Of a stretch of DNA of 64,000 nucleotides, positions 1,368 to 60,349 are shown piece after piece. The DNA is taken from positions 3,968,001 through 4,032,000 of the forward strand of contig NC_043000.1 in assembly GCF_006345805.1 (NCBI RefSeq). Direction: 5' to 3'. The position numbers and the translations under genes were made by a program. Source of the DNA: Octopus sinensis (taxonomy: Eukaryota). Under the pieces are notes generated by a model. It worked only from the letters and a program-made list of their open reading frames with translations, did not search any database and was not told the DNA's origin. Each line of letters opens with the position of its first letter. Position 1 is the first letter of the stretch.

Positions 1368-3279
1368 AAAACATGCATTTTGTGACTTGCAGATCTGACA
1401 CATTTTATAATTCTTTTCGGAGACAACAGATGAAATTTATTTTAGCTCCAGATACTTATTATTTGGGATTAAATATATTAATATATGTAATTTGATAATT
1501 AGCATGCTAAATAATAGGCATAACTGGACTATATCATTTTTACCAAAATTTATTCCCAAAATAATATTATACTCAATAAAAATGTTTTATATAAATCCCT
1601 TTCTGGGGGGTTGATGTAACTGACTTTCTCATTCCCTCAAAATTGCTGACCTTGAGCAAAGTTGGAAAGAATTATCATCATCATCATCATCATCATTGCT
1701 ATTAAGGTGGCAAGCTGGCAGAACCGTTAGCATGCCTGGTAAAATCAGAAGAGAATCTTTTGTATTAAGAGAATCATGAACTGATATTCTTGTAGGACAA
1801 TACACTTGTACACATGCATGCAGGAAAACAAACAGGGATTTTCTGACTTCCATGGTACAATAAAGACATTTTATGAGTCTCTTGGAGACAACAGGCACAT
1901 TTTGTGGATATCTTAGGACAACAGATACACATTTTGTAACTCTGTAGAAGGGAACAGACAATTTTTGCAACTCTTTTGGAGTAACGGAGGTAGTTTTGAC
2001 TTTAGAGAGCATATTTTACGACGTTCAGGGGTAGATTTTACATCAGTTTTGCTAAGTTTGCAAGGGTGAGATGATTTATCTGTTAGAACAACTGTTTGTA
2101 TAACTGGATGGATGTACTTTTTGTTGTGAATCATTCAGGGAGCAAGTACAGATGAAAGATATTTAGTAATCAGAGGGACTTCAGCCACCAGTTAGTCGTC
2201 CTAGTCAAGGGCATAAAACAACAACAGTACTAAGATTTGAAATTACAACCATGTAGTCAGTAGTCACAAGTATTTTATATTATAAATATACTTTGTATAA
2301 TTACTGAGATTCATAGGTCCAGGTAGTAACTGAGGTTTTTGTTCAGTTATGTGTGGTAGAACAAATATAACTGGGTTGGATGGTTCCAGCAAAACTTTAT
2401 TTATTATTTGATCATATAGCTTGATTTAGTTTACTCCTGTGGTGGAAGTAAATCAATGTTTGTTGATTCTTTCCTGCTTTTGAATCTTTCTCTCTCTCTT
2501 ATGCTTAAATGAAACATCTATTTATCTTTCATTCATTGATATTGTCTCGATTTGTTGACAGACTTTCCTGTTCTACAAACTACAACAGGAAAATATATCA
2601 ACAATAGCAAATAATATGGATTTAGTGCCTTTTTTTTCTTTTTGCTCTTTTTTTTTTATAAAACTGATCTGGGAAAAGTATTTACAATCCAGCTGAAGAA
2701 GCCAAAGATTTTCCTATCACGTGGCAAGAGGCTGAAGCTTGTGGCATCCTTGTCAACTCATGAAGACTGTTTGATGTTGCTAGATTGATTTCTTTGCCGC
2801 AATCTTCTGTAAATACTTTTCTGCTAACCTTTGCACAGATTTAAATTAAATCTCTTGTCTTCTCATGTTAGGTTGCCTGTATTCGGTATGTTTTACAATA
2901 GACAACAGAGAAATCCTATCATTTCTTAGCTTGTCCACTTGCTGCAAGATAATCTCAGTTATAAATATTAATTTGATTCTTTATAGCAAGAATTTTCTCT
3001 CTGATCTCACTCTCTTTGACTCAAGTAGTTATAGATTAACTTTTTTTTTCCTCTTTTCACCTCTGGGATTTTATATTCATCCTCTCCATTTCCTTCTATC
3101 ACATATGTATTGAACAAGACATATATTCATTTAAGTCTTCCTTTGTGTGTGTATATTTGGATGTGTGTGTGTGTGTGTATCCTCTTATGAAAATGTATGT
3201 ATATTTGTGTATGTGTTTGTACATATATCCTTTTATGAAAATGTGTGTGTATTAATGTATGAGTGTGTGTGTGTGTGTA

Positions 3280-3595
3280 TCATCGTTGTCATGTTTAACG
3301 TCCACTTTCCGTGCTGGCAGAGGACTGGCAAGCCAGGAGGCTACACCACACTCCAATCTGATCTGGCAAGGTTTCTACAGCTGGATGCTCTTCCTGATGC
3401 CAACCACTCTGAGAGTGCAGTGGGTGCTTTTTACGTGCCACCAGTATGAGGGTCAGTCAGGTGGTACTGGCATCGATTACACTTGAATTGTGCTTTTTAC
3501 CTACCATTAGCACAGGAACCAGTCAGGTGGCACTGGCAATGACCACGCAAGAATGGTGCTTTTTATGTGCCACCGGCATGGGAGTTAGTCAGGCA
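3280..3595 (-). mobile_element. SINE-like repeat, family C ((GAT)n-tailed)
   Basis: Shared motif CAGCTGGATGC(C/T)CTTCCT(A/G)A(C/T)GCCAACCAC and TTTAACGTCC tail junction; about 16 copies. Confidence 0.75.
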
Positions 3596-3682
3596 ATATG
3601 TGTGTGTGTGTGCGTGTGTGTGTGTTTAGTGCAAACAGGAAAAATAGAACTCAAAATATGAGTATATGTATATTTTTTATCA

Positions 3683-3932
3683 ATGTTTAGCTGAAGTAAC
3701 AGAGTCACTCAAGGTCTGTGAGTTTAGTGCATTGACACCTACCAAACTAGTCCCAAGTTGAAGACTTGTGAATTTATATAGCTGTTGATAACTAGATATA
3801 AGGAAATATATATATATATATTTATCAACAGCTATATGACCTCACAGGTCTTTGACCAGTGACTTGCTTGATAAGTGTCAGTACATGAAGCTCTCAGACC
3901 TTGACTCACTCTGTTACGTTTGCTAAATATTA
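3683..3932. repeat. Imperfect ~250-bp palindrome (foldback MITE-like) centred on (TA)n
   Basis: Arms pair: GTAACAGAGTCACTCAAGGTCTG / CAGACCTTGACTCACTCTGTTAC and ATATAGCTGTTGATAA / TTATCAACAGCTATAT. Confidence 0.8.
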
Positions 3933-5446
3933 ATAATATATATATGTATGTAAACACACATATACATAATATATAATATATACATGCACATATATATGTT
4001 TAAGTGTGTATACATGTATATCTATACATAAGTACAAACATAATTTACTTATTTGCAATCACATGATTTTGGGTTCAGTCTCACTTATCAGCTCTTTAGG
4101 CAAGCGTTTTCCCACTATAACCCCCACCCCATTCTTGTCAGCTGGTGTTTGTTTGTTTATGTCCCCCCCCCCCTTCAGCAAAAAGACTGATCAAATAAAT
4201 ACCAGACTTAAGAAACACCTAAGTACTGAGGTTGATTTGTTTGACTAAAACTCTTCAAACCGATGTTGTAGCATGGCCACAATCCAATAACTGAAACAAA
4301 TAAATGATAAAAAAAGAAAAGAAATACTGTATTATATACAGTACATGCAAGAATGGAGGTAACTATATTACATTTATTCTTTCATTAAGATCATTTCAAC
4401 AATATATGGTTCAGAGACATCGGGAATACAAATATAAATGATTATCTAATATTTGTAATATTACAAAATTTTTATTACTTGTGGTCCATGTTCATCTCGT
4501 CAGACAAAGGTAAAAAAAAAGATCATTATTGCTTTTATCTTCTGGTTAGTCCTTACTACCAAAGCCATGCAAGTCATGACCACCACCACCCTGTCTTTTA
4601 TTCAGGCATAGTGTATCTTGGGCTACATCATCCAATTTGTCTTTCGTTTTTTAAGGCACCATGGTGATTGGAGAGAAATTTAGTTGCTATTTCTAGCAAG
4701 TTTAGTGATCACATACAGCAGACATGGACATCGTTTTTCCAGAAGCATGTCACATGAGACATGGCTCTTCATTAGGTGGGCCATCCTACTAAAAAACACT
4801 CAAGGTAATTTTCCATGAGCTGCAGTTTGCCCACGACTGACATAGAGGTTCAGTTGGCTCGACAAAATGAAGTTGAAAATCTTTATTGTGGCAAAAATAG
4901 GATCTTGGTTGCTCCCACAATAAAACTCTACTGAAGGACCCAGTTCAGTGACTCACAGAGCGAGAACTGGATGAGAAACGATTCCACTGGAAAACTCAAC
5001 TCTCTTCCATTTTCAAGACAGAAAATTGCACATTTTAGTATAATTAATTGTCTACGTTCATCACTATAGAAACTGTCACATCAAAGGTAATAATAATGTC
5101 ATTATATTGGTTTATTGGTATGATATCTGACTAATTAATATGTACTGACTAAAGTAATAAATTATAATTATATTTACTACCATTAAGGGAACCTTTATGT
5201 GATCAATAAAACTACTTTAGCTAAAGCTCTCTAACCAAATCACACACCTTACCATCTTGAGAAAGGGAAGGATATATTTGATACTGTATTTCTGAATATA
5301 TTCTCCAAAGATTGGATGATTATGGTTGGAAGGCTTTTAATAATAAGTCTTCTCAATCAAGGATGAGTTCGAGTTAAATGATCACTACTACTTTTACATT
5401 CAACAAAATTTTACCTCTACTCTTTTGCTGAAAGTAATTTATCACA

Positions 5447-10726: not shown

Positions 10727-11124
10727 CTCACAATGACAAAGCTATTTTATTACAGTCCGTTCAAATTGTTGAATATTTTCAGAATAACCTGAAGCACTCA
10801 GGCTGTGTATTTCAGAAGAAAATTATGGTCATGAAACGGTTAAACCTGGTCCATTGACATCAGCCAGTCAATATTTCTTAGTATACATGTAATATTGGAC
10901 ATCTATAAGGAGATTGCAAAAATTGCTTTGCAAGTATAACTGAACTATAAATATCCAAATTACTTTCCACAATTATATTACTTATGTGAATTTATATCTA
11001 CTGTGGCTGTTGGGAAATTACTAAACAGAGCAACAGACATGTATAATTGCTGTCTACTTACCAAATGGATAGCTTATTATTACGTTTCACATGATCATTA
11101 TCATCAGTTTACATATGCTTTTTC

Positions 11125-11499
11125 AAAGACCTAGGCTGCATTCCCCCAACGGGTGCTATCCGCCTTGGACGACCTGGCCCAAAACCTAGGCTCATCAAGT
11201 TGTCTTTTACGGACCCCACTGAGGCAACCTCTTACCATCTGGCCTCAGTTAAAGCTGGGCGGGAAAATCGGACCACCTTCCGAACACGCCCAGGCTTACC
11301 GTCCAATGTACGTCCGAAGCTACGTGTAGTGGCTTCCCTGAATAGGAACTCAGCTCTACAGGAAAGCTTCAGTCTTCGGGAAGATGGACAAATCTGGAGA
11401 TTTGTCAAGACTGCTGAAACGTGGAAGAGAGATACCAGCTGGTCTGAGTGCTCTCTACCCACAATAACTAAAAAGACTACAGCAACTCAGGGAAACTAA
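11125..11499 (+). pseudogene. LINE ORF1 C-terminal remnant
   Basis: Open frame KDLGCIPPTGAIRLGRPGPKPRLIKLSF...QGN*; RLG...PRL.K..F is typical of CR1/L2 ORF1. Confidence 0.6.
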
Positions 11500-11555
11500 G
11501 CCAGAACAACCTGCCATCCTCTACACACCATCATAAACTGCGAGCAGGGTACAAA

Positions 11556-14236
11556 TTGTTGTCCTTAAATGCTCGCAGTTTATGCAACAAAATACATTTG
11601 TTCAACGCCTACGTCAGAAGTGTTGACCCTGACTTCATCACTGTCACGGAAACATGGGCGCATTCCTTACTCTGTGATGGGGTTTTCAACATCACGGGGT
11701 ACAACCTCTTCCGTAAGGACCGCACTAACCGCCGTGGTGGTGGTGTGATGGTCTATGTTCGTTCAAATTTTTTGGTAATTCCTTGTGCCGATTTGAACGA
11801 ATCACAAGAAGAAGTTTTTTTCTGTGACGTGCGTATGACCATGTCAACACTCCTGCTTGGCGTTGTTTATTGTCCCCCAAGTTACCATCGGGACACACAG
11901 CTTTGCAATGTCCTCCGAGCTGCTGCCAGGAAAACAGCCACTTATGTGTTTATTGCAGGCGATTTCAATCATCCTGAGATCGATTGGGAGACCTTCCATT
12001 GGCCACAGAGTGCAAACGATTTTGTTGAGCTTGTGCTGGACTCAAACTGGTCACAAGTAGTCACCTCTCCAACAAGAGGCGACAACACCTTGGACCTGCT
12101 CTTCACCACAACTCCTGAAGCGGTTATCAATTGCACTACGGAGGAACCTCTAGGTGACTCTGATCATGCTATGATCATCGCCAATCTGGCTCTTGCGGGC
12201 AACAAAAACCTGAACCATCTCCAATCTGCTTCCTTCGATTGGAAGAGAGCAGATTGGAACCTGTACCACACTGAACTACAGCACCCAAACTGGCGTGAAT
12301 TCTACAACTCTGGAGATGTGAATACTATACTCCAGAGTATCCTGGACTCAATATGGGCAGCATGTGCAGCATCAGTGCCACGTAAACAAAAAAAGAAGAA
12401 CCGCCCCAAAAGGGCAATTTGGGAAACTTCAGCGGTCCGACTTGCCAGGAGGGAACGTCGGACTGCTGAACGGGAATACAGGTTGCATAAATCAGACACC
12501 AACAGGAAGAAGCGGAATAAATCCTCCAACCATCTCAAGCAAGTGACAAAAAAAGCAGTGCTTGAATTTGAACAGTGCATAGCAGCCAATCCTGACAGCA
12601 AGGTTTTCTGGAAATATGTGCACTCAAAGCAGAGACCTCACTCTCCAGTGGGCCCTCTTCGCAACCCTCACACAAACCAGATCACTGACGACCCCAAGGA
12701 ATGCGCAGAACTCATTGCCGAGTGCTATGGCAAACATATTCACTGTTGAAAGTCAAAATGTACCATCTTCACCATCACTAACAGCAAACTCCATAACAAC
12801 TATGGAATTTACACCTGCAATGCTGCGACGTCACCTTCAAAATAAGCGCAACTATGCCTCCCCTGGTCTCGATGGAGTTACATACCTGCTTCTCAAACGT
12901 GGCAGGCACTTCCTTTTACACCAGCTTTCTATTTTCTTCCAGTACTGTCTCAACAATGGTGCTACTCCGGAGCAGTGGAAAACTGCCAGTGTCATTCCTC
13001 TGTTCAAAAAGGGCGACCGCACATCACCTGTCAACTATCGCCCAGTCAGTCTCACTAGCTGTATTGCAAAACTGATGGAATCGTGTGTCAGAGAAACACT
13101 CTGGAACTTCTGGAGCTCTCACAGTCTCATCCGACCCTCACAATATGGATTTGTCCCTAACTCCAGCTGCAGTGACCAGCTTGTCGAGTTCCTTGAGGAC
13201 ATTACTCAGATTACTGACAGTGGCTCATAGGTGGATGTTGTCTACCTTGACTTTGCTAAGGCTTTCAACTCTGTGCCACACAAAAGGCTTATGGTGAAAC
13301 TCTCTGCAATGGGTGTGGGGGATGACCTTTTTAACTGGTTGAAATCCTTCATCCTCAGCCGAAAGGAGGTAGTCACAGTTCTAGGACAGCACTCTACACC
13401 ATATGAGATGTCATCGGGTGTACCACAGGGATCTGTCCTTGGCCCCCTCTTGTTTGTGGCATACATTAACGACATAGATGCCAATTTAAAGAATGCCACA
13501 GTATTGAAATATGCAGACGACATCAAGCTGTACCTTGAAATCAAGAGGACAGATCCTGATGTCTACAACTCTTTCCTGCAATCAGACCTAGACACAATGC
13601 AGCAATGGATCACAGACTGGCAACTGAAACTGGCTGTGGACAAGTGTACCACCATGCATTTTGGGAGAAAAAACCCTGCGTTCACATACTCCCTCCACAA
13701 CACTGATATCAAGAAATCCTCTTGCGAGCGTGACCTAGGCATCACTGTCAGCAGTGATCTGCGTTGGTCAAAGCATATCTCTAAGATTGTCAGGAAGGCC
13801 GAGGGTGTCTTGGCATCACTCAGCAGGTCTTTTGTTAGCCGCTCTCCAGCCATCTATTTAAAACTGTATACAGCTATGGTACGACCACACTTGGAATTCG
13901 CATCATATTCTACCATATTCTGAGCGCCATGTTTCTCTGGGCATGGATTCACTGAAGCTCCGGCGTTTGGCGACGGACTTGGTAAACACCCACAAAGTTA
14001 TCAACCACCTCACCAACAACAACACTGAACACCTTTTTGACCTCCATGTGTCTAACACACGTGGACATGCCTACAAAGTCAGAAAACAATACAGCTCCCA
14101 TGACTTTCGGAAACATTTTTTCACGCTCAGAGTTGCTGAAGCATGGAATAAACTGCCTGCGTCAGTTGTTGACTGCCATGACACTGCATCTTTTAAGGCC
14201 CTCATGCTTTCCGAAATCCGCCGAAACTTCACCTGA
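11556..14236 (+). pseudogene. LINE ORF2 (APE endonuclease + reverse transcriptase), disabled
   Basis: APE motifs LNARSL, VTETW, GDFN, LDLLF, SDH; RT motifs NYRPVSLTS, YLDFAKAF, GVPQGSVLGPLLF, YADD. Frameshift ~12740, TAG at 13228-13230, apparent deletion/frameshift ~13908. Confidence 0.92.
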
Positions 14237-16642: not shown

Positions 16643-18098
16643 TAGAAGGTTTGGAGATGATGTACAGGTATTTTATATTAGAAGAAACGAGGTACTCAGA
16701 ATTCAGATGGTTTTATATTTACAGATATATATATATATATATAATAAATTAATAAATAAATAAAACATATGCATATATACATACATATATGTACGTACAT
16801 ACCTCTATATGTATATATACATGCATATATGGGTACAGGACACCAAATAAACGTCGAACACAATGAGAAACACAAAACCAAGGAAATGGACATTTTTCTT
16901 AACGAAAAAATAGAGTACAGGACATACAAAACAAGGAAAATTCCCCTTCTTCAGTTGCCTTTGTTTAATCTACTCCATGTTTCGAAGGTCAAGGCGATAC
17001 ATGACTTTAATGAAACTTTCCTTCCCACGAAAATCAAATTAAATAAAATTTGAGATTTTTTTACGGAGGGGTAAAAATAGTAACAAAAACAGGACAGTAA
17101 CGACAGTACAAAATATAAACAGTAAAATACAGGACACGGAGAATAACAGTAACACAAACAAGAAGGGCTGTTAAGCCGAACGAGATAAAATTTTTTACGA
17201 ACACTATTTTTTGAGAACGGCGAGGGAACAACAGATTAGCCGTCTCTACACATCCATTTCTAAGTAAGATTGTTCTTAATATATATATATATATGCTTAA
17301 ACTTAGATACTATAATCCCTGCTTCCGAGGGAGCTATGTGTATGGCTGAAGCCAATATTAATACTAATAGAATTACTAGTACTAACAATACTAACTCTAT
17401 TATAACCATTATAACCACTACAACTACTAATAATACTAACAATAAAACTAATACTACTACTAATGAAAAGCTACTACTGAAAATAATACTATTTCTAATA
17501 CTAAACAACAACAACTATTAATAATAATACTATTGCTACTAATATTACTACTGCTACTAATACTAATACTAATAGTAATAATTATAATAATAATAATAAT
17601 AATGGTAATAATGATAACAACAACAACAATATGAGCCTATCACCCAATACAACCTTAGCCTTCAACCTGTCTGCAAATAGTACAATTTCACCCCTCTCTC
17701 CAACTAACCAACTTAGAACGGATAGTTGCAACTGCAGGTCCAGGACCAATTGCCAGTTGTAAGCGGTTCAAGGTGGTATACAAATACACTGTCCACCACT
17801 TATTAAATTATTCCTCGAGCTACCATATCGGATCTACTGTTAATTTCAAGCAAAGGTATTCTGCCCATTTAAACTCATTTAAATATAAAGAGCATAGCAA
17901 CTCCACATCCCTGGCCAGTCACATACACCATCTAGTTAATTGGAAAATACAATATAGGACATCCTGGGCTATAATAGATTCTGGAATCCCATACCAGGAA
18001 CAGCGCTCCACATGTGGACTCTACCTAAAGGAGGCCCTCCAGTTATTAACTCATAACTCCCCACAATTACTCAATAAACAAAACAGAGCACTCACAAC

Positions 18099-18985
18099 GG
18101 ATCTTTTCAATTCTGAAGCCAGGACCACAGATCTTTCTACTTAACTAAATATTCTGAAACTTCGTATGCTGATAGAGTCTAGCAAAACAAGACACAGGTT
18201 GGAACTAGTTTATTTGAGAAAAATCTATTTTATGACTTTAATCGTAGATTAAAACTGCGAATTTTAACCAATCAGATTGTTTGTTTTCATGTGTAAAACT
18301 TGACTGCATTCTATTAGTGTGACGTAGAAAGCGCTTTTGTGACGTACTAACGTTCGGAAAACTGTAAACAAACACAGAACGTAACGGCAGACGAAATACG
18401 GCTACGCATTTCGCCCGGCGTGCTAACGTTTCTGCCAGCTCTTTGCTTTTTTAATATTAAATTTCTTGCCTTTTGCACAAATAAATACAATAAGTGAAAT
18501 GAAACGCATTAGCTTAGAAACGAAATCTTGTTAGAAGCCTCGTCACTGAGATGCCACTTCTTAATAGCAAACGAAAGCAAGTACTAACAGAATGGAAACA
18601 TTTTCAATTTAATACATGTGGCTTATTAACTAGTTTTAAATATTGTTATTAGAAGGTGGCTGACTATAGGATCCTGGAAACATGAGTACTTAAATAATTA
18701 GAAGGAGATTTCACGGAGACATGCGGCTTGTTTACATTTAAGATGTTTAATACGTCACCAAATTGGTGGTCGAGACGGAGTAAATAAAATAAAGCCGAAT
18801 GACGGATTATCATTGGTTAAAATTCTAATTATTAAACAACGTTAAACTTAGAAGTTACAATTCCGTTTTCATTCTGGTTTACAATTAAGTTTACTTTTGA
18901 CACATTCTACCAGTATACGAAGTTTCAAATTGTTTGGTTCAGTAGGAAAAATTTGAAAAAACTGGCTTCAGAATTGAAAAGATCC
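18099..18985. mobile_element. Non-autonomous DNA transposon, GG-terminal TIRs, 8-bp TSD (Merlin-like)
   Basis: TIR GGATCTTTTCAATTCTGAAGCCAG; TSD CTCACAAC at 18091-18098 and 18986-18993; contains a SINE B fragment at 18375-18441. Confidence 0.85.
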
Positions 18986-20012
18986 CTCACAACTTGTAAA
19001 CACAAATTTTTCTGCACATTTAAATTTTTCCATAAGTCCAAATGTAAACTTATCTCTCACACATAACACTTACTTGCGTATTTCTATGGTTGTTATTATA
19101 TACCAATGTCTATCCTTTCATTATCTTCTCCATCAACATTAGTGCCTTAGAAGATAGCTGCTAATTTTTTACTTTAACCTGCAGGTTTTAATTTAATCTA
19201 AATTTTAAACCTTAACTTCTTAAACCTCCAAATCTTGAATTGTAACTTTTATTCCTAAACAATTAAATATTCAACTGGTTTCATAATCAACTGGAACTTC
19301 ATCTATTCAACAGACACAAATATTTACTGCTTGACCTCTTGCTCCAACCCTAAACTTGAGAAATAGCACTGGCATCTTATCTATTATTCTCTTTATTTCT
19401 TTTCCTATTCTCCTTGATCCTATTTACTTTAAATTTTTTTTCCTCCATTATCTTCCTCCTCTCTTTTATCTATACCCTAATTTTTACAATTTATTCTTAT
19501 TTTTATTTTATTTCTACTTTTTATAGTTTTTTTTATTTTATTATATTTTTAGTTTTTACTCTATATTTTTATGTTTCTTTCTTTAACCAATCCTGACCAA
19601 TCCTTGCCAATACCCTGTCACTTACCTTCCTTCTCTCTTTCTATCCCCACAGACTACCCCTATTTCTCTCTCTCTTCACTAACATCTCTTTCCCTTTATT
19701 TCTCTTTCTCCCTACACTATGCTCAGTAGCCACTTTTATTCTCACACAAACCAGCCATCTCAATATGAACACACCATTCCTATTTCTGCCAAAATATTGC
19801 CTGGATACTTTGCCATAATACTACCTGGATTTACCTCAGCTTTTACCTAATGATATACAGACTAACATCCATACCCTCTGAAAAATGAACTTTACTTTCT
19901 TATTTCCTTATTCTCTACCTGTCTATTTTATTGCTTATTACCTGCAAATTTTCCATGTCTGGATCTTTTATCTGAATATTTCCATGTGTAGGTCTTTCAT
20001 GTTTTCTACTTG

Positions 20013-20086
20013 TCTCTGATGACGGAATACCCCATATTCAGGCATGCTTGCCTATCACTTGGGATAGACCAGAAACAGCTGTAAGA
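20013..20086 (+). ncRNA. Type I hammerhead ribozyme motif (PLE-associated)
   Basis: TCT-CTGATGA-[weak stem II]-GAAA-CAGCTG-TA-AGA; palindromic stem III. Confidence 0.6.
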
Positions 20087-21250
20087 TCTCAACTAATTTA
20101 AGAATAATATAAAATAATGTATATGACTTGAGATGCTTGTTATGCCTTGGTATTTGTTGTCCTCTTTCACAAATATATATCTGCTAAATTAAATCAGCAA
20201 CCTAAAATGGATCCATAGCTCCCATCTCAGTTATGAGCTTGAAACCCTAATAATCCGTTACAACACTCACCCAGTGTACCTATTTGCTTAGATCCCCAGT
20301 GAACTAAACCCACATATTCTATATATGTGCATATATATACACACATCTATACACTTCTATATATAAAGTGTATACATGTGTGTGTATATATATGTACAAA
20401 TATGTATGTATAAATGTGTATATATGTGTGTGTATACATATATATATATATATATATAAAGTGTATAGATGTGTGTATATATATATGTACATATATCTAT
20501 GTATAAATGTGTATATATGTGTGTGTACATATATATATATATAAATGTATGTCTTGTCACTGTAAACAGTGAGATATTAAATCTTTTTATCACTTTGTTG
20601 GGAACAGTAAGATATCTTACGAGATATTTCCTATCATGTTATTCAAATCGTTGACTATCTTGTGCGGTATATTTTAAACTAGAAGCTGCACGGTAGATTC
20701 TGTTTATTTCTACTGGAACTTCAATGATATTGTTCGATATAAACAAAGGCAGTAAAAGAAAGCATAACTGTAACAAATTAAGACACTTTATTTATTTTTT
20801 TTTTCCAAAGGTTTTATGACTATAATTTTATTAGATCAGCATTATCAAACTAATGCAATTGTTACCATGGTTACAGAATGGTGGGGGGCAGATGGAGAAA
20901 CACAATTCTTCAGCTATTATTCTTTTATACATAGCCGTGTTTACTATAAAAAGTATTGAATACAAGGGAGGAACAAGCAAGGATGGACAGAGACACAAGC
21001 ACGCGTACATCAGTTTTCATAGATTCATATCTATATATTTATCTATGTTTGCATAAATACAAACACACACACATTTATTTGTAGGTGTAGGTGTGGCAAG
21101 AGGTTTCCTTCCCAATCACATGGTTCCAGGTTCAGTCCCACTTGTTAGTGTATTTGACTGAAGGAAACTGAAAGAAGCTCATTTTGTGTGTGTGTGTCTG
21201 TTACTTTCTCCTTGTTATAACACTTTGTGTCAGTTGTAAATAAACGTTAC

Positions 21251-21480
21251 TAGGCGCAGGAGTGGCTGTGTGGTAAGTACCTATAGGCGCAGGAGTGGCT
21301 GTGTGGTAAGTACCTATAGGCATAGGAGTGGCTGTGTGGTAAGTACCTATAGGCATAGGAGTGGCTGTGTGGTAAGTACCCATAGGCGCAGGAGTGGCTG
21401 TGTGGTAAGTACCCATAGGCGCAGGCGTGGCTGTGTGGTAAGTACCCATAGGCGCAGGAGTGGCTGTCTGGTAAGTAGCT
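21251..21480 (+). repeat. Seven tandem 33-bp units of the SINE A 5' end
   Basis: Unit TAGGCGCAGGAGTGGCTGTGTGGTAAGTACC(T/C)A starting 21251, 21284, 21317, 21350, 21383, 21416, 21449. Confidence 0.95.
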
Positions 21481-21830
21481 TGCTAACCAGCCACATGTTT
21501 CCGGGTTCAGTCCCACTGCGTGGCATCTTGGGCAAGTGTCTTCTGCTATAGCCCCGGGCCGACCAATGCCTTGTGAGTGGATTTGGTAGACGGAAACTGA
21601 AAGAAGCCTGTCATATATATGTATGTGTTTGTGTGTCTGTGTTTGTCCTCTTAGCATTGCTTGACGACCAATGCTGGTGTGTTTACGTCCCCGTCACTTA
21701 GCGGTTTGGCAAAAGAGACTGATAGAATAAGTACTGGGCTTACAAAAAATAAGTCCCGGGGTTGATATGCTCGACTAAAGGCGGTGCTCCAGCATGGCCG
21801 CAGTCAACTGACTGAAACAAGTAAAAGTAA
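21449..21830 (+). mobile_element. SINE A, full length, continuing from the tandem array
   Basis: Family A consensus. Confidence 0.9.
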
Positions 21831-22146
21831 AAAATCAAAAAAATCATGGAAGCAGTGACCTTTGTTTCCAGTCTTCTGTGAAAACATGTCTGGTCACTTG
21901 GAAACAGGTGAAGGTTGGCGATAGGAAGGAGGTCCAGCTGCAGAAAGTCTCCCTCAATAAATTTTGTCTGACCCATGCAGGCAAGGAAATGAGGATGTTA
22001 AGATGATGATAATAATGATGATGACAATGATTTCATTTCACCTAAACACACATCTCTGCATATATACACAGACATTTGAATGGAACGGATATGGATAGAT
22101 AGATGATAGATGTATACATAGGCATGCCTGTTTATGCATACAAATA

Positions 22147-22185
<39 letters not shown>

Positions 22186-22438
22186 ATGCGTATGTATATG
22201 TGTGTGTGTGTGTGGTGTACTCGAATTGATTGATGTCTTTCAGAATCTTGCCATTGCGTATGGCGAAGAAACCTTTCAGAAAGTCAACTTTTAGAGATGC
22301 AAATGGATTCAGTCCCTTGTTGCAGTCATGTTAACATTCTTGCCAACATGCAATGCGACACACTGAAGAGTTTGGCAGCTGATTGGATATTGATTATGTC
22401 ACCAAATATTACAAGGTCATCAGCACTCACACATACAC

Positions 22439-22476
<38 letters not shown>

Positions 22477-22479
22477 TAG

Positions 22480-22817
22480 ATCGTTACCAGCATCGCCTTA
22501 CTGGCACGGGAAAAAACATTCGAGTGAGATCATTGCCAGTGCCGCTTGACTGGCTCCTGTGCAGGTGGGACGTAAAAAACACCATTTGAATGTGGCCATT
22601 GCCAGTACTGCCTGACCGGCCCTCGTGCCAGTGGCACGTAAAAGCACCCACTATACTCTTGGAGTGGTTGACTTTAAGAAGAACATCCAGCTGTAGTAAC
22701 TCTGCCAGATCAGATTGGAGCCTGGTGCAGCCATCTGGTCCACCAGTCCTCAGTCAAATCGTCCAACCCATGCTAGCATGGAAAGCGGATGTTAGACGAT
22801 GATGATGATGATGATGA
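22480..22817 (+). mobile_element. Family C repeat, long copy
   Basis: Family C motifs and (GAT)n tail. Confidence 0.8.
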
Positions 22818-22827
22818 TATATATATG

Positions 22828-22867
<40 letters not shown>

Positions 22868-23046
22868 GAGATGTTTTGGTATCCAGAAGACCCAAAAAGC
22901 AAGTAAGGTGTTAAGCTCCTGGTTCAATAGTAGCATGAGTGAGGAATCTAAGGTAGGTTGTATATGAGTGTGTATATGTTAAATAAGATAAGATAACAAG
23001 GTCAAGGCAGTTTGATATTCCTATGACATTTATAAATAGAGAGTTG

Positions 23047-23090
23047 GCCTTACAGCTGTTTCAGGGAAATAAGTGATATCCCATCATCAG
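23047..23090 (-). ncRNA. Hammerhead motif (core intact, stem I 5' arm missing)
   Basis: Minus strand CTGATGA-TGGGA...TCCCT-GAAA-CAGCTG-TA-AGGC. Confidence 0.6.
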
Positions 23091-23252
23091 CAACTTTAAC
23101 ATCCAACATGTATTCTTATTTTCATATACTCTTTTTATACTTTCTGCTTTATATCAAATTTCTTGTATATCTCTCCTTCTCCAGAGTAACTTCTTCAAAA
23201 AAAAAAAAACAAAGAACTTTACTAATTCTTTCTATTGAAGCTCTTTTAACTC

Positions 23253-23300
23253 GTCTCTGCCGATGGGATAGCACTTATTTCCCTGAAGCCACTGTAAGAC
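23253..23300 (+). ncRNA. Degenerate hammerhead motif, inverted partner of 23047-23090
   Basis: GTCT-CTGCCGA-TGGGA...TCCCT-GAAG-CCACTG-TA-AGAC; stem I intact, core mutated. Confidence 0.45.
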
Positions 23301-23473
23301 CACCTTTCTGTTTATAAATGTCCCAGGAATATCAAATTACCTTGGCCTTGTTATCTTATTTAACACACATATACACATCATCATCATCACCATTATCATT
23401 TAATGTCCATGCGGGCATGGGTTGGACAGTTTGACAGGAACCGGCTAGGCAGGAGCCTGCATCAAACTTCTGT

Positions 23474-23689
23474 GCTGTCCAAGAATTTGGACCTGGAGAT
23501 CTTCATTTCCAGTGACTTCGAGGGCCACCTCCCAGTGGTGTCGGGTGTCAACGAAGAGCCCTCGACTACAACAAGACGGCCAAAGTTTCTTTTTCCAAGG
23601 TCTGGGGTCTCCCGCCCCTAAACCCTAGACCATTACCTAATCACCCTTACCCGTCTTGTTGCTTAACAACAACAATAACAACAACAACA
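23474..23689 (+). mobile_element. 5'-truncated retroposed fragment with (CAA)n tail and 13-bp TSD, inside a family C copy (23377-23920, minus strand)
   Basis: TSD ATCAAACTTCTGT (23461-23473) / ATCAGACTTCTGT (23690-23702). Confidence 0.7.
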
Positions 23690-24183
23690 ATCAGACTTCT
23701 GTCTCTTTTGGCATTGATTTTATGGCTGGGTGCCCTTTCTAACACCAACTACCCCACAGAGTGGACTGAGTGCTTTTTATGAGGCACTAGCACTGGTGGG
23801 GTCAGTTTCAGCTTGGTTTTTACAGCTGGATGCCCTTCTAAATGCCAACCACTTCACAGTATGGACTGGATGCTTTTATAGATGGCACCAACACTGGCAG
23901 TGTCACCAAATAACTTGCAAGACACACATATATATATATATATGAATGTATGTATTAATACATTATAACTGAAAGGCTCTGATTTCTAGTACTCAGAGAG
24001 TTACTAGTTTCCAGGCATCAGCTGGTAGATTGAGCCTGGTATATATAGGCTTGTCTGTGTGGTTAAGAAGCTTTAACAGTAAGATCTTGTGTTCAGTCCC
24101 ATACTGTGGGGGTCCTTGGACAAGTGTCTTCTATTATAGAAAACCAGAGTCTTCTGAGTGGATTTGGTAAACAGAAATTGAAA

Positions 24184-24413
24184 GGCAGCGAGCTGGCAGA
24201 AACGTTAGCATGCCGGGCGAAATGCTTAACGGTATTTCGTTTGCCGCTACGTTCTGAGTTCAAATTCCGCCGAGGTCGACTTTGCCTTTCATCCTTCAGG
24301 GTCGATTAAATAAGTACCAGTTACGCACTGGGGTCAATATAATCGACTTAATCCGTTTGTCTGTCCTTGTTTGTCCCCTCTGTGTGTAGCCCCTTGTGGG
24401 CAGTAAAGAAATA
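24184..24413 (+). mobile_element. SINE B (young) with 12-bp TSD, nested in an A-headed SINE (24045-24690)
   Basis: TSD AGAAATTGAAAG at 24173-24184 and 24414-24425. Confidence 0.9.
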
Positions 24414-24846
24414 AGAAATTGAAAGAAGCCTGCTATATATATCTGTGTGTGTGTGTGTGTGTGTGTGTTTGTGTGTAGTCTTGTCTTATCACCTTTTGCT
24501 GAGTGTAAATGAGCAACACACTGATAGAAGTGATTTCCAATCATCCATGAAAGGTGTATCTGGCTGTGGGGAAATATTACCTTGGTTGAAAACAGATATG
24601 GGTTGGTGACAGAGAGGACATGTGGGTGTTGAAAACCTGCCTCAGCAAATTCTGTTTGTCTCATGCAAGCATGGAAAAGTTGATGTTAAATAAAATAATG
24701 CACACACACACACTCACACACAAATAGGTTTACATACCACCTATGCATACATACACAGATATACGACCATACATGTACAGACACAGGTGTATCGTTGGCA
24801 ATTTTCTTTCTCTGTCTTCCCTTCCTTGGACCTTCCCTTTTTCAAT

Positions 24847-24881
24847 GTTTCTGATGAAGAGCTCCGCTCGAAACGTTAAAT
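24847..24881 (+). ncRNA. Minimal (dimer-type) hammerhead ribozyme motif
   Basis: GTTT-CTGATGA-A-GAGC(TCC)GCTC-GAAA-CG-TT-AAAT; lies in a ~200-bp module at 24780-24980. Confidence 0.65.
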
Positions 24882-25001
24882 CCTCTTTCGTCCTTTCTTT
24901 TCCTGAGCGTCCAATAACACTGTACTTGTTCCATGTCCTCACATTGTTATGTTTTCTCTTTGTTCATGTTTGGATTAACTATATAAATATATATATATAT
25001 A

Positions 25002-25389
25002 TCTTTATATATAAAAGTAAGATTGTGTGTCTGTCTCCTACGATTTAGATTCCTAACTACTCCCACATTTTGCGGTGCAGTTTAACTATCTTATAGTCGT
25101 GATTCATATCGAGCCCTTCTGGGTATTAGTGCGCGTCTACGATGAGTCTACGATTAAAAAAAAAATTAACCATCATTTTTTCCATTTTAATGCATTTTTT
25201 CGCTATTACATAAGGGACGCAACTCTCTAAAAATGTCTACGATGAGTCAACGATTTAAAAAAAAAATTACCATCATTTTTTATTCCATTTTTAATGCATC
25301 TTTTTGCTATTTTTTTGCTATAACTCACTAAAAATGCTTATATAGTTATTTCCCTTACAAACCCGAGCAACGCCGGGCGATACTGCTAG
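25002..25389 (+). mobile_element. Non-autonomous Helitron
   Basis: A|TCTTTATATATAAAAG 5' end; 3' hairpin CCCGAGCAACGCCGGG then CTAG|T; no TSD; second copy at 58947-59345. Confidence 0.88.
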
Positions 25390-25513
25390 TATATATATAT
25401 ATTTAAAATCACAATAAGGGTGAAAAAATTGAATATTAATTAATAACATCAATTTAAAACACCAAGTGGTCTAGCGTAAAAAAAAACTGTGATACAGTAA
25501 AAATTATTAATAC

Positions 25514-25880
25514 AAGCAATAAGAGAGGGACCACATGTGGTCACTCTAACGCTAGAAATAGATCCGCAAAGGGAATCCACCACTAAAGAATTGTTCTCAA
25601 GCATTAATTCATTCAACATGCCAAGAAATGTAAGCGGGCGGGACAAATGAAAAATAACGAAAAAATGGATTAACTCTATACAATTGTTTCATCGTTAATA
25701 GGTTGTGTAATTTTACTTACAAATCATTTTCGAATCCTCGGTAGAGTATATCAAAAATATAATTTGCTGAACCGAACGCCAAAATCAATACGAAGCCGAG
25801 CAAAGGATTAGTGGTGGATTCCCTTTGCGGATCTATTTCTAGCATTAGAGTGACCACATGTGGTCCCTCTCTTATTGCTT
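25514..25880. repeat. 73-bp inverted repeat pair (probable inverted PLE pseudo-LTR fragments)
   Basis: 25514-25586 vs 25808-25880, one mismatch; half-hammerhead at 25679-25690 (minus strand) between them. Confidence 0.7.
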
Positions 25881-25935
25881 ATATATATATAGGCTTGGTG
25901 ATGCAAATAAAAATAGAACTCAAAAAACATGAATA

Positions 25936-26230
25936 TATCATCATCATCATCATCATCATCATTTGCTGTCCGTTGTCCATGCTGGCATGGGTTGAATAGT
26001 TTGACCAGAGCCAGCAAGCTGAGGAACTGCACCAGACTACAGTCTAATTTGGCATGTTTTCTACAAATGCATGTGCTTCCTAATGCCAAGCACTTTACAG
26101 AGTGTGCTGGGTGCTTATACATGGTGCCACACGAATACTTTCATGTGGCACCACATGGGTACTTTTATGTGGTGCTACATGGGTGCTTTTATGTGGCACT
26201 GCATAGACGCTTTTATGTGGCACCATCACA
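25936..26230 (-). mobile_element. Family C repeat with internal ~22-bp tandem units
   Basis: (ATC)n tail; repeated GGGTGCTTTTATGTGGCACCACAT-like units at 26110-26225. Confidence 0.75.
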
Positions 26231-26404
26231 AGTGCTTTTCAACACCAGAGGGACTGGTCTTAATACTTCTGTTGCAGAGTATGGGCCTTCTAGCACAAGC
26301 AACAGAGTAACTCAAGGGCCAAGAGTTTCATGCACTAGCACTTTATGTCTCTCTGTCTATATATGCATATATATATTATATATATATATAGATATCATCA
26401 ACAA

Positions 26405-26824
26405 GAACGGCCATAATAGGCCATTCACCCACTAGAAATAACAGCCAAAAGCTTCAACCGCAAAATAACTCAATTCCGGTAACCAGGAGAAAATTAAAAA
26501 CATTTACCCTGTAATTTCCTTATACGATGCACCGTTTCATCTACTGTTTAATGGTAAACTAACATGATTATTAAATCAAGCCAATCTTCCATAGGCCCTT
26601 AGAATCATCATAAGAAATAGCCAAGTCGGAACAGATATTTTCACGAGGCATTTCCTTCCCTGCCTCGGCAATATCTGACCTAAAATTTTCAAATCATCGC
26701 ACTCGTCGCCAATTTATCGCAGCAAATAAATATAAGCCGCCTTTCTCCTGTTTACGGATTGATGTTATTTTACGTTGAAGCTTGGGCTGTTATTTCTAGT
26801 GGTGAATGCCTATTATGGCCGTTC
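26405..26824. repeat. ~62-bp inverted repeat pair (probable inverted PLE pseudo-LTR fragments)
   Basis: 26405-26469 vs 26764-26824; bounded by (TA)n. Confidence 0.65.
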
Positions 26825-26959
26825 CTTGATTGTGATGTTGAACTTAAAAATGGTCTAGACTATTTAATTTTTTCCCACTAGGCCGCTGGTGCAAAAAATT
26901 CTACAAATTTTTGCCACCCTATATTGATTATATATATATATATATATATATAATATATT

Positions 26960-27148
26960 ATGGACGCCATGATAGATCGTTAGCTACTACACATAGATTT
27001 TTCTCTCCTTGTTTTCTGTGTCCCTTTCTGTAGAAGGTCGTAGGCTCGAAACGTAAAAGACTTTTTCATTCCTGAGCGTTATACTAATACATCTGTTTGT
27101 TTTGTACACCACCTGTCTTCGTCTTTTGTTATTTTTTTCGTAAACTCT

Positions 27149-27151
<3 letters not shown>
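26960..27151 (+). mobile_element. Short (TA)n-embedded module with a degenerate minimal hammerhead (27024-27060)
   Basis: CTTT-CTGTAGA-A-GGTC(GTAG)GCTC-GAAA-CG-TA-AAAG; 3' part related to 24900-24980 and to reverse-strand fragments at 27545-27620 and 46886-46960. Confidence 0.55.
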
Positions 27152-27185
<34 letters not shown>

Positions 27186-27676
27186 TTTCTTTTAATCTTT
27201 GAATTTGCATTACTTTTCCATTGTGATGCAAATAAAATCAACCATACATCTGTTATATATTTTTTCTTCTCCATTCTCTTTTATTAAATTTTTAGTGTGT
27301 GTATGTATATTTGTGTGTGTGTATGTATATTTGTGTGTGTGTGTCAGTGAACAGGTCACGGTCTCACAGTAACAAAAATATTTTGGCAAATAAAATTTAA
27401 ATGTTGAAGCGAATCTAACAGTTTTTTGTGTGTTTTTAAATGGCTTAAAAATACCTTCCATGCTGCAATTGTTTTTGTTTCAGCACATGATCTCAGATCA
27501 GGTCACTTGCTATGCAAGTACATCTCCGTAATATATATATATAGTTCAAATTTACAGAAAATATAAGATGAAGACAGGTGAGGGAACAACAAGTGGATGT
27601 ATTAGTTTGACACTTGGGAAGAGAGAGAGAGAGTATGTGCAATTATGCCTAGACATATATATATATGTGTATATAT

Positions 27677-33639: not shown

Positions 33640-34236
33640 CCCTGAAATCTTCTGCATCTTCCGTTTCCCTCACCGTTTTCTTTTTCTCCCTCCCGTTGCT
33701 TCCCCAAAGTGTCATGCTGACTAGAAACTTTTTTTTACTGGAAGCTCCAACAGCTGGAGACCGTGGAAACTGCTTTGCCTCTCAGACTTAGCTGCTCTGA
33801 TCTCTTTCACAAGGCTGACAGTAGCATGCTTACCAAACAACAACAACAACAACAACAGCGGCAGCAACAGCAACAGCGGCAGCAGCAACGGCAGCAGCAG
33901 TGCCGAGGACACGGAACGCATCAATTTACACTCTCACAACTTGTATGCACACTTGCGTGTGTGTAGACGCGTGCACTCTCTCTCTCTCCTACCAGCGGAA
34001 GCAGCAGCTGGTGAGATGGACTGCTCTTTACATAGCATAACCGCCACCACCACCACCACCACCATTGACAACACCACCGCCTTCTTACTCGTAGCTACAG
34101 ATATGGTCATCTGGCCTCCTCCCACCACACTGCATTACATATACCACACACATACAATCCACTAATAGTTGTGCAGTAGTTTTGCACGTTAGTTTTATAT
34201 CTTTTAAAAAAAAATTCATTACAGTTTGTTGTTTTT

Positions 34237-40054: not shown

Positions 40055-40253
40055 AAATAGATGAGTGTATTTTACCTTGTTAACAATTAACACAGATAAA
40101 TGAATGAATAGTTACCAGGGCAGCAAAAATCTCACAAGTAAAGATGTTGTAACTCCTTGTTTATAAAGGTTGAAACTTCGTGTTTACGTTGAATATTTGA
40201 ATAATAGGAATAAAAAATACTTGTTTAAACCTGCGTTAACTCCATTTTTTATT

Positions 40254-59345: not shown

Positions 59346-60034
59346 TTTACTTACTGAATGAGTCTCTCTCTGTTTAAAATACCCCTTACTCTCCACTGAT
59401 ATCACAAGAAAACTGTGCCCACTTGTAGTTACCCTGTAATTCAGTTAACTGAACGTCTTTGCTGTTGCTCCCTAATAACATACAGAGAGCTGCACTCCTT
59501 AGTTGTTTCATAATAATACAGAGAAAGCTGTGAATGACAATATTCCAGTGTAAAACCGTTTTGACTGTTAATACTTCAACTGTTTACCGGTTAATAGTAA
59601 TAATAAGTAAGCAGTAATTTTACATATTACGGGCAGTTTGGAAATCTATCACAGGAAAGCAGCTTTAAATGACAGCTGCTGTATAAAGTCACTATATAGA
59701 CTATTTAAGATGCTGACTAGAGGAAATGATGTGTATATTGACCACTATCTTCTATTATTTCTTAAAGAATTGTCTGTCTACTGAGTTCAACTATTGCATT
59801 ATTCTACTTGTTCCCTTGTTCTAGTGCGTGTGTGTATATAAATATTGGTGCATTGTTGTATGACTATTCTATATTTATACTTTAACCTTATGGTGCTTTG
59901 TCTTACTGGAAAGCAATACTATCATATTGCACTATTAAAAATTTTTTTTCACTATTTTCGGTTCTGTTAACGGCTAGGTGTTCAGGCAGGTATACTGGCA
60001 CTGATGTAGCAATGTTCAAAATTTTGTCTCGGTG

Positions 60035-60110
60035 AATCTAGCTGAAGAGAACTAATCAAATTTACGTAAACAAATGTATTTTGGAGAGTTCGAAACCTAG
60101 GTCCTAGATT
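60035..60110 (+). ncRNA. Type I hammerhead ribozyme, complete consensus
   Basis: Stem I AATCTAG/CTAGATT; core CTGAAGA (60042-60048); stem II GAACT/AGTTC; GAAA (60092-60095); palindromic stem III ACCTAGGT; GTC cleavage triplet (60101-60103). Confidence 0.82.
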
Positions 60111-60199
60111 ATCCACATCTGGGTTGTACATTTATCTATTGTTCTTCCTACAGGTAAGATGAAATTTTTAATGTTTGCCGCCTGCAAACATCTTTGCTA

Positions 60200-60247
<48 letters not shown>

Positions 60248-60349
60248 TGAAGCGTTACTATAGCATTGTATATTATCAACAGCTATTTCCTGTAAATATT
60301 GGTGCATTGTTGTACCACTGTTCTATATTTGTATATATATATAATATAT

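Follow-up and report, generated by a model that had tools for sequence, protein, structure and literature searches.

The window (64,000 nt of Octopus sinensis contig NC_043000.1, forward-strand positions 3,968,001 to 4,032,000) contains nine hammerhead motifs, eight of them in a cluster of 7.4 kb and the ninth at 60035. Each was found at the position given in the initial annotation, and the stem III palindromes listed there are all present. Every module belongs to a dispersed repeat family, for which a first look at the genome gave 891-5194 candidates. The eight motifs had been assigned to several unrelated modules; they collapse to 7 insertions from 4 lineages. Families A and B are two sisters among the Penelope-like elements (PLEs), C and F are homologous along their whole length, and an alignment of D with E spans about 360 nt (long and gapped, with z about 7, a level that an apparently unrelated pair also reaches).

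Family A is represented by a 5'-truncated Hydra-clade PLE at 17296..20326 (+) that comprises a linker, a GIY-YIG endonuclease (EN) remnant, a 3' UTR, a hammerhead and a TA end, and is collinear with loci L091, L092 and L093. An unrelated insert of ~885 bp (18099-18983) splits the element. The remnant with its EN motifs (17659..18098, +) lies ~2 kb upstream of, and collinear with, the 20013 motif; a sister copy of it gave a weak Pfam GIY-YIG match (E 0.004, below the cut-off). Hammerhead A (20012..20087, +) has a CUGAUGA core, a stem III of ACAGCUGU and a stem II that is decayed here and family-wide. Family B is present as a 3' end with tail at 22868..23095 (-), whose hammerhead (23048-23090) has an intact core and lost the 5' arm of stem I at an inversion junction. 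The degenerate hammerhead at 23253-23300 belongs to an inverted copy of the same insertion (23237..23365, +); the motifs at 23047 (-) and 23253 (+) represent a single inverted insertion and are 84% alike. The view that all modules lack ORFs does not hold, given the endonuclease remnant and the identity of A and B as PLE 3' ends.

The assignment to the Hydra clade draws on several features. In 10/20 EN loci, an A or B end follows the EN downstream in the same orientation (a B end in 3/20). The order RT thumb, linker and C-terminal GIY-YIG was found in L091, L099 and L100, with A and B seen as broken copies only. The CxCx5C linker, the CxxC and CxH around E and N and the lack of CCHH correspond to the Hydra diagnostics of Craig 2021, with the linker cysteines lost in the window copy of A. 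RT motifs from other copies of A match Craig's Hydra alignment as judged by eye, and both families combine a hammerhead at the 3' end with (TA)n insertion, as is characteristic of the clade. On these sequence features, A and B are the 3' ends of decayed Hydra-clade PLEs. The refuting condition named in the initial annotation, fragments of catalogued PLE ends, holds at clade level for A and B. Naiad and Neptune were considered for A and B and dropped, since the EN is C-terminal and the linker is CxCx5C.

Protein searches with EN-containing queries found no relatives, and a search with an RT piece found one of 806 aa (P0001). Against the genome, P0001 gave 126 matches whose open frames measure 700-900 aa; 30 matched loci formed 9 clusters at 75% identity. 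Intact as well as broken Hydra-clade PLEs (RT, CxCx5C linker, C-terminal GIY-YIG) are thus present in the genome. Pfam did not recognise these RTs. Most of the sampled Hydra families carry their own type I hammerhead beside the ORF. The background also contains many solo ends from autonomous Hydra families.

Families D, E and H consist of tandem units with one type I hammerhead each and a longest ATG frame of 26-55 aa. Family D (unit about 525 bp; 25395..25885, -) has its hammerhead at 25673-25747, with a U4C core, a U·U at the base of stem II and ACAAUUGU; the tail reaches 25395 and an inverted 5' copy lies at 25808-25884. Family E (unit 488 bp; 26396..26925, -) carries a hammerhead at 26516-26617 (the 26523 motif) in which C3 is deleted relative to its family, followed by an inverted copy with tail at about 26742-26925; elsewhere, E arrays reach up to 14 units. 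Family H (unit about 433 bp; 59839..60330, +) contains the intact hammerhead of the ninth motif (60035-60110, ACCUAGGU) and is partially tandem across a TA run. Tandem loci were counted in 12/30 (D), 17/25 (E) and 17/25 (H) cases, and inverted 5' copies in 11/30 (A), 13/25 (B), 23/30 (D), 21/25 (E), 14/25 (G) and 2/25 (H), with all these loci being best matches to the window copies and hence biased.

The remaining insertions are shorter. Family C is an ORF-less element of about 215 bp (24787..24985, +) with a minimal hammerhead at 24847-24881 (ACGU). Its homologue F (about 200 bp; 26958..27152, +) has a hammerhead at 27024-27059 with a family-wide A6U core (CUGUNGA) and shares the TA run 26929-26958 with E. 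Family G, an ORF-less element of about 215 bp (27342..27531, +), has a hammerhead at 27342-27390 with a G3-C8 core (GUGAACA) and a stem III of AAUAUU; the window copy is decayed. The G3-C8 core, which belongs to the family of the 27342 "half motif" and was overlooked in the initial annotation, is the most unusual feature.

Two discrete 3' ends, which give a "tail" of about 55-120 nt, were found in D, E and G. Together with the inverted 5' copies they constitute the PLE footprint in these three families. The pair is missing from C and F, which have nearly no inverted or tandem copies (inverted 0/25 and 1/20); in C, F and G both the 5' and the 3' end are fixed. The ORF-less elements are short (200-525 bp), and their 3' ends are fixed on (TA)n. 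The association with (TA)n was borne out in that family 3' ends abut such runs, more weakly for G, where the flank is merely AT-rich. A run of (TA)4+ lies within 350 nt downstream in 25/41 background copies, compared with 31% of random points at the same loci. In the window, D and E resemble TIR-bounded elements, but a MITE or DNA transposon reading was dropped, because their inverted arms vary in length from tens to hundreds of bases and are missing in many copies. A tRNA-derived SINE was likewise not indicated, ARAGORN finding a tRNA-like head in 0/8 units (a weak test for decayed heads). Contigs from four sequencing runs of four organisms (run type guessed) cover D, E, F and G, which suggests that these families occur in relatives.

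Most probably, the cluster represents seven insertions into TA microsatellites, comprising two Hydra-clade PLE 3' ends and five ORF-less repeats that were likely mobilised by Penelope-type enzymes, with hammerheads predicted to form homodimers. The earlier proposal is supported in so far as hammerhead-type motifs sit in retroelement families associated with microsatellites, and several of these families are non-autonomous. From the footprints and in vitro work (Frangieh 2024, PMC11167929), a PLE protein would nick AT-rich or (TA)n DNA. Reverse transcription may then begin at one or the other of a pair of internal sites that follow the hammerhead downstream, which would account for the two fixed 3' ends, the varying extent of 5' truncation and the inverted 5' copies. 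D, E and H would be non-autonomous units copied from tandem or circular RNA, similar to non-LTR retrozymes, and C, F and G fixed-length short elements that are either self-propagating or short by-products of a parent element. Copy 5' ends do not pile up at the predicted cleavage site, so the copies are not cut-to-cut monomers and uncut or re-joined RNA is the template. Insertions may leave or occupy TA runs that attract the next insertion, giving local pile-ups. Poseidon_Ac in vitro likewise has two RT start sites that yield a tail (30-40 nt, shorter than here), an AT-rich target and an uncut RNA template (PMC11167929).

A less probable, though serious, alternative is that C, F and G, and perhaps D, E and H, do not propagate themselves but are solo pseudo-LTR fragments, dead ends left by further autonomous PLEs. 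If reverse transcription started internally, close to the 5' end of a PLE transcript, products of a fixed length of ~200 nt would result (Frangieh 2024), which fits the ends of C, F and G, fixed on both sides; the frequency of autonomous Hydra solo ends in the background and a non-Hydra PLE RT fragment in L022 also favour it. However, the 433-525 bp units of D, E and H are arrayed head to tail with no ORF between them, none of the fetched C, F and G copies runs on into an ORF, and the ends of the sampled Hydra families gave no match. Counting against the favoured reading, no autonomous parent of C, D, E, F, G or H was found among 10 sampled autonomous Hydra ends; D and the PLE end in L356 have the palindrome and a short stretch in common that is not significant against shuffles. 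Chlamys elements such as MRC1 (Craig 2021) are comparable ORF-less PLE dependants with head-to-tail insertions. They generally share the 3' end with an autonomous family, whereas none matched here among the sampled ends, and most of them lack canonical hammerheads, unlike the present families.

At the family level, the conserved core with its 3-8 pair, GAAA and UH is present, as are stems I-III with compensatory changes between families. Family core variants are G3-C8 (G), A6U (F) and U4C (part of D, H and C). Compared with their own families, most copies in the window are damaged: stem II is broken in the 20013 and 27024 copies, core and palindrome are both broken in the 23253 copy, and the 27342 copy has G12A and a broken stem II. 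A strict hammerhead descriptor is passed by 2/8 cluster motifs and, among all nine window copies, only by 24847, 25673 and 60035. A motif frequency above that of shuffled sequence was confirmed with a family-independent descriptor, which gave 2 matches in the 7.4 kb compared with 0.01 on average over 100 dinucleotide shuffles, and 7 matches in 600 kb of background compared with 1 after block shuffling. The 150 of 213 Rfam matches that were listed contain microsatellite look-alikes only and no hammerhead.

The G3-C8 core family has 4,299 exact copies in the genome and is a predicted self-cleaving hammerhead, in line with the expectation that core variants retaining a 3-8 pair (C-G, U-A, G-C) would be tolerated. 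In three G subfamilies (n=31, 7 and 3), core, stem II and stem III are constant and loop II varies; the sole stem I change retains a G·U pair. A C3-G8 sister was found in 0/90 non-G3 matches, so the swap was not observed as covariation within a lineage. In Poseidon_Ac, G3-C8 was engineered (C3G/G8C partly rescues cleavage), whereas here it is natural. It is possible, but rather unlikely, that the hammerheads are vestigial in amplifying families and that the G3-C8, A6U and U4C cores are inactive relics. The copies do not represent products of cleavage, insertion in vitro is normal with catalytic mutants (Frangieh 2024), changes of A6 reduce activity (Perreault 2011), and both the family-wide decay of stem II in A and the missing C3-G8 sister point in this direction. 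In contrast, G3-C8 requires two changes that jointly restore the pair, the constancy of core and stems II/III beside a varying loop II holds across three, albeit small, G subfamilies, and F keeps U6 in 23/24 copies, with N7 taking all four bases. No earlier report of G3-C8 or A6U as natural family-wide cores was found in an incomplete coverage of the literature.

Stem III is palindromic in 17/26 multi-copy groups and in 6/86 singletons, in a search that did not require stem III pairing. In the homologous families D, D2 (L368) and E, stem III reads CAAUUG, CUAAUUAG and CGGUGCAUCG, accompanied by corresponding changes in stem I; palindromes thus differ between related families yet remain self-complementary. 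This agrees with the suggestion that stem III is suited to dimer folding. Two adjacent identical hammerheads are predicted to pair with each other at stem I and at the palindromic stem III, exchanging strands and giving a double hammerhead, which would maintain self-complementarity despite sequence drift. The cofold MFE structure is a double hammerhead in 4/10 tested copies (E, H and two autonomous families), and is not for A, B, C, D, F and G. The initial annotation had further described a usually different palindrome in each family, which might act as a family-specific dimerisation code. A and B, however, share one palindrome, C and F share another, and others recur in unrelated families. 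A selected code that blocks pairing in trans or matches a parasite to its helper is improbable. At least 14 distinct palindromes occur, only 2/190 family pairs are fully cross-compatible, and ACAAUUGU is common to D and the PLE end in L356. Against this, 6/78 pairs (13 families with 6-nt palindromes) share a palindrome, or 7.7% compared with 6.25% by chance when the first palindrome base is held at C; sharing at the chance rate gives no sign of avoidance. Moreover, ACAUAUGU is common to three autonomous families, both compatible pairs are sister families, stem I differs between D and L356 (0-1 bp), and tandem arrays provide a partner in cis. A dimer of identical units needs self-complementarity, which explains the palindromes without a code, and since stem I is intermolecular in the dimer fold, low cross-compatibility follows from divergence alone.

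Hammerhead-family copies number roughly 190,000 genome-wide, or about one per 15 kb. The background density, estimated from 60 stretches of 10 kb, is 0.068 copies per kb, so that 0.5 would be expected in 7.4 kb, and the clustering is real; nhmmer matches, circular for the window copies, were used for the background counts only. Copy counts are over-dispersed and track TA density (rho 0.37, p 0.004), which in the cluster is only 1.75x background and explains the excess, roughly 14-fold, in part. Under a negative-binomial fit, the probability of at least 7 copies per 10 kb is about 5e-4, so stretches of this kind should number on the order of a hundred across the genome. Among the genome-wide copies, the cluster is a pile-up in the upper tail. 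That the locus itself is special, whether as an array of ribozymes or as a trap for transposons (for example a piRNA cluster), is very improbable despite 7 insertions in 7.4 kb for 0.5 expected and 1-2 in the rest of the window, because orientations are mixed, the mostly broken copies are interspersed with very common repeats, the over-dispersion and fitted tail cover such a case, and the window was picked because it looked rich.

The overall system is largely known. The Hydra clade is a published (TA)n-targeting, hammerhead-bearing PLE clade (Craig 2021, PMC8557442), whose hammerheads, like those here, have a U·U at the base of stem II and ACAG..CUGU or ACAA..UUGU in stem III, and whose insertions nearly all lie in (TA)n. 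Its members, including Hydra-1_Obim of Octopus bimaculoides, share with the present elements the C-terminal GIY-YIG, CxCx5C, CxxC/CxH, RT motifs, (TA)n target, type I hammerhead and inverted 5' copies. Differences are the number of Hydra families (about 9-10 here compared with one), A and B hammerheads unlike that listed for Hydra-1_Obim, a long loop II (about 10-70 nt), perfect even-length palindromes and a 3' UTR >1 kb. C, F and G resemble minimal PLE hammerheads (Cervera & de la Peña 2014, PMC4209133; Lünse 2017 as cited by others) in the unpaired base after A9, the G10.1-C11.1 pair, the 2-4-nt palindrome, a frequent U17 and mostly solitary occurrence. U3-A8 families also occur in both, whereas G3-C8 in G and A6U in F are distinct as family-wide cores.

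D, E and H in turn resemble metazoan non-LTR retrozymes in being low-GC, ORF-less tandems with one type I hammerhead per unit (Cervera & de la Peña 2020, PMC7229834; Li et al. 2026, 10.64898/2026.07.22.740005). Loop II in these three families is a long hairpin. A PLE origin or mobilisation of metazoan retrozymes was already proposed there; the accessible text of neither paper mentions cephalopods. Unit lengths of 433-525 bp compare with 170-400 nt (PMC7229834) and 51-972 bp (10.64898/2026.07.22.740005), and the tandem units here carry PLE footprints (tail, inverted 5' copy, TA target), terms that do not appear in the accessible text of PMC7229834. PLE-type hammerheads cleave poorly, with 1/9 tested dimers active in Li 2026 (10.64898/2026.07.22.740005), and the PLE hammerhead is dispensable for insertion in vitro (Frangieh 2024, PMC11167929). 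A broader interpretation, put forward tentatively and thought unlikely as a whole, would be a hammerhead radiation comprising about 10^5 copies and 25+ families, in which C-G, U-A and G-C 3-8 pairs and A6U each became fixed in successful retroelements, G3-C8 is naturally active and invisible to CUGANGA searches, and ORF-less tandems are circRNA retrozymes that rely on Hydra-clade PLE proteins for insertion. On this interpretation, the intact helper ORFs in the same genome would make the retrozyme-helper question directly testable.

At about one copy per 15 kb, the hammerhead families impose a large RNA-motif load; the main text of a 2026 Octopus vulgaris repeat annotation makes no mention of ribozymes. 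A natural G3-C8 hammerhead with >4,000 exact copies, together with an A6U family, would widen the natural core consensus and would show that descriptor searches overlook whole families. The ORF-less tandems with PLE-specific footprints beside intact Hydra ORFs provide a concrete system in which to address what purpose the PLE hammerhead serves and by which enzyme animal retrozymes are moved.

Every hammerhead motif claimed in the initial annotation was confirmed at its place in the window. Eight are located in a cluster at approximately 20013-27388, in modules A (20013 +), B (23047 - and 23253 +), C (24847 +), D (25679 -), E (26523 -), F (27024 +) and G (27342 +), and a separate motif, module H, is found at 60035. 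A family-blind descriptor, combining a paired 3-8 position, stems I and II, a palindrome and UH, matched the window at 24851 +, 25741 - and 60042 +. With two descriptor matches in the cluster, against an average of 0.01 over 100 shuffled sequences, the motif frequency lies above that of shuffled sequence. The remaining six window motifs are damaged copies, and fellow family members elsewhere are more complete. No hammerhead was among the 150 of 213 Rfam matches listed for the window. In the 2.72-Gb animal genome to which the window belongs, 891-5194 first-look candidates were obtained per module.

The motifs had been assigned to several unrelated modules that lack ORFs. Eight motifs are indeed present, but they correspond to seven insertions, because 23047 - and 23253 + form an inverted pair, and these insertions belong to four lineages (A+B, C+F, D+E and G). 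The lack of ORFs applies to C-H, where the longest ATG frame spans 17-55 aa, but not to A and B, which represent the termini of autonomous-type elements.

A frame at window 17659-18144 encodes a remnant of a GIY-YIG endonuclease (EN), for which 150 genome matches were scored. Three genomic loci (L091-L093) are collinear with window 17296-20326, save for an 885-bp insert. Within 20 EN-hit loci of ten kb each, the A end is found downstream on the same strand in seven and the B end in three. The A/B-type proteins carry a CxCx5C linker, CxxC and CxH, given by Craig et al. 2021 (PMC8557442) as marks of the Hydra clade of Penelope-like elements (PLEs), and their RT motifs resemble the Hydra alignment published there. 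According to the same paper, almost every Hydra family inserts into (TA)n, and these families carry hammerheads; an Octopus bimaculoides family included there has a hammerhead that differs from those described here. In the A and B ORFs of L091, L092 and L099, the RT-EN linkers are long, low-complexity and Asn/Thr-rich, and are built of trinucleotide microsatellites.

A full-length relative of 806 aa (P0001), used as query, yielded 126 genome matches with frames of up to ~900 aa. The 30 loci fetched form 9 clusters, most of which have their own hammerhead beside the ORF; at L365, no readable hammerhead was found in this position. Loci L326-L355 and L356-L375 represent some 9-10 families of Hydra-clade PLEs. 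Several of them retain uninterrupted frames of 717-842 aa, have copies that are almost identical and are candidates for recent activity. In some of these PLEs, the ORF is flanked by a hammerhead on each side. At L356 (minus strand), a CAAUUG hammerhead is located upstream and a UGGCCA hammerhead downstream of the ORF (~2194 and 5290 in ORF orientation), which could reflect either a nested insertion or a chimera formed from two sister families. In another Hydra family (L363, L364, L371), stem III of the hammerhead is long (ACAG-8 nt-CUGU), and the motif may fold as a monomer. A 3' flank fragment of a further Hydra hammerhead family, with the core missing, is found at window 40188-40246 +. Finally, a broken RT fragment at L022 (~325 +) contains RYVDD, typical of non-Hydra PLE clades; it is a possible lead to the parents of C, F and G.

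The family G hammerhead is, by sequence, the minimal PLE type with the C3-G8 core pair swapped to G3-C8. It consists of a 7-bp stem I, GUGAACA, an unpaired G, a 5-bp stem II opening with G-C, GAAA, AUAU and UU. This pattern has 4,299 exact genome matches, versus 0 for the reversed control. A pattern that also demanded the stem I prefix gave 90 matches with a base other than G at position 3, and C3-G8 occurred in none of these. Three G subfamilies differ in loop II and share a constant core and constant stems II and III; one stem I change among them retains a G·U pair. Stems I and II are formed in the monomer MFE structure, and the 6-bp AU palindrome is not formed in the dimer MFE structure. 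In vitro, C3G/G8C partially rescued a PLE hammerhead (Frangieh et al. 2024, PMC11167929). Natural U3-A8 was reported by Perreault 2011 (PMC3088659) and Cervera 2014 (PMC4209133), and U3-A8 families are present in this genome, too. Short ones (L361, L373, L375, L208, L265, L051) have the cores UUGAAAA, UUGACAA and UUGAGAA with CCGG or CGCG palindromes. In family F, U6 is retained in 23 of 24 copies and N7 is variable. A subfamily of D (13 of 30 copies) is characterised by U4C, which is linked to another diagnostic change and has a precedent in a viroid (PMC3088659). No report of natural G3-C8 or A6U was found in a literature scope that leaves aside Lünse 2017, Przybilski & Hammann 2007, Arkhipova 2017 and one Cervera 2014 supplement file, and none of octopus hammerheads in the literature searched; further papers cited are PMC6765202, PMC7761336, PMC3884650 and PMC13282606. 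The family-wide G3-C8 (and A6U) core may be new.

In a survey of hammerhead groups that imposed no stem III pairing, stem III was strictly palindromic in 17 of 26 multi-copy groups versus 6 of 86 singletons; the remaining multi-copy groups comprise five near-palindromic ones and four apparent chance hits. The homologous modules D, E and D2 (a D homologue at L368) have three different self-complementary stem III sequences. Of 10 copies cofolded, 4 had the double hammerhead as their lowest-energy structure (E, H and two autonomous families). Based on these three results, selection for homodimer folding, as proposed by Cervera & de la Peña 2014 (PMC4209133), is well supported. The idea of a family-specific dimerisation code is unsupported: ACAUAUGU, ACAAUUGU, ACGAUCGU and ACGU recur across different families, a 6-mer palindrome is common to 6 of 78 family pairs versus 6.25% by chance, and, of 190 family pairs, full compatibility was seen in 2, both made up of sister families (A-B would be a third, had stem I not decayed in the B copy that was compared).

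Copies of the hammerhead families identified up to this point were counted in sixty evenly spaced 10-kb stretches. The 41 copies found (0.068 per kb) put the genome-wide number at roughly 190,000, an approximate minimum, and the expectation for 7.4 kb at ~0.5. Background counts are over-dispersed and correlate with the density of TA runs (rho 0.37). Under a fitted negative-binomial model, the probability that a 10-kb stretch holds at least seven copies is ~5e-4. One TA run is common to E and F, and the TA density of the cluster is 1.75 times background. TA density alone leaves part of the clustering unaccounted for, and the stretch is an upper-tail pile-up amid other abundant repeats.

Further features of the window include a frameshifted LINE at 11095-14236 + with AP endonuclease (PF14529, PF03372) and RT (PF00078) pieces, which is no PLE and has no relation to the hammerheads. 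A 33-bp unit in 6.9 tandem copies (21251-21477) heads a very common repeat. A TA-bounded repeat of ~380 bp between C and D (25006-25390) is common at other loci, and no hammerhead was seen in it. An open frame with CAA/CAG repeats (33725-34165 +) may be a host-gene exon.

The proposed bounding by (TA)n was borne out: in all of C-H the 3' end is fixed and a (TA)n run comes after it, less cleanly for G. In modules D, E and G, the 3' end lies at either of two positions ~55-120 nt apart. This matches the 'tail', which Frangieh et al. 2024 (PMC11167929) attributed to a pair of internal RT initiation sites and described as PLE-unique. Among best-hit loci, a choice that biases the fractions, inverted 5' copies occur in 23/30 (D), 21/25 (E) and 14/25 (G) and direct tandems in 12/30 (D), 17/25 (E) and 17/25 (H); both are almost absent from C and F. 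Tandem periods are ~525 (D), 488 (E) and 433 bp (H), and the longest array noted, a single E array, has 14 units. The copies examined show no accumulation of 5' ends where cleavage is predicted, which is consistent with a template of uncut RNA. None of ten autonomous ends compared was a parent of C-H. The ORF-less tandem elements D, E and H therefore appear to operate in the same way as the non-LTR retrozymes described by Cervera & de la Peña 2020 (PMC7229834), for which PLEs were proposed as helpers. On the basis of vertebrate data, Li et al. 2026 (10.64898/2026.07.22.740005) argued for a view of such elements as non-autonomous and derived from PLEs; one of nine dimers tested there cleaved. 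PLE insertion footprints on retrozyme-like arrays may be new. The motifs themselves are real, hammerhead-type and of a known kind, namely ends of Hydra-clade PLEs and ORF-less elements that likely depend on PLEs.
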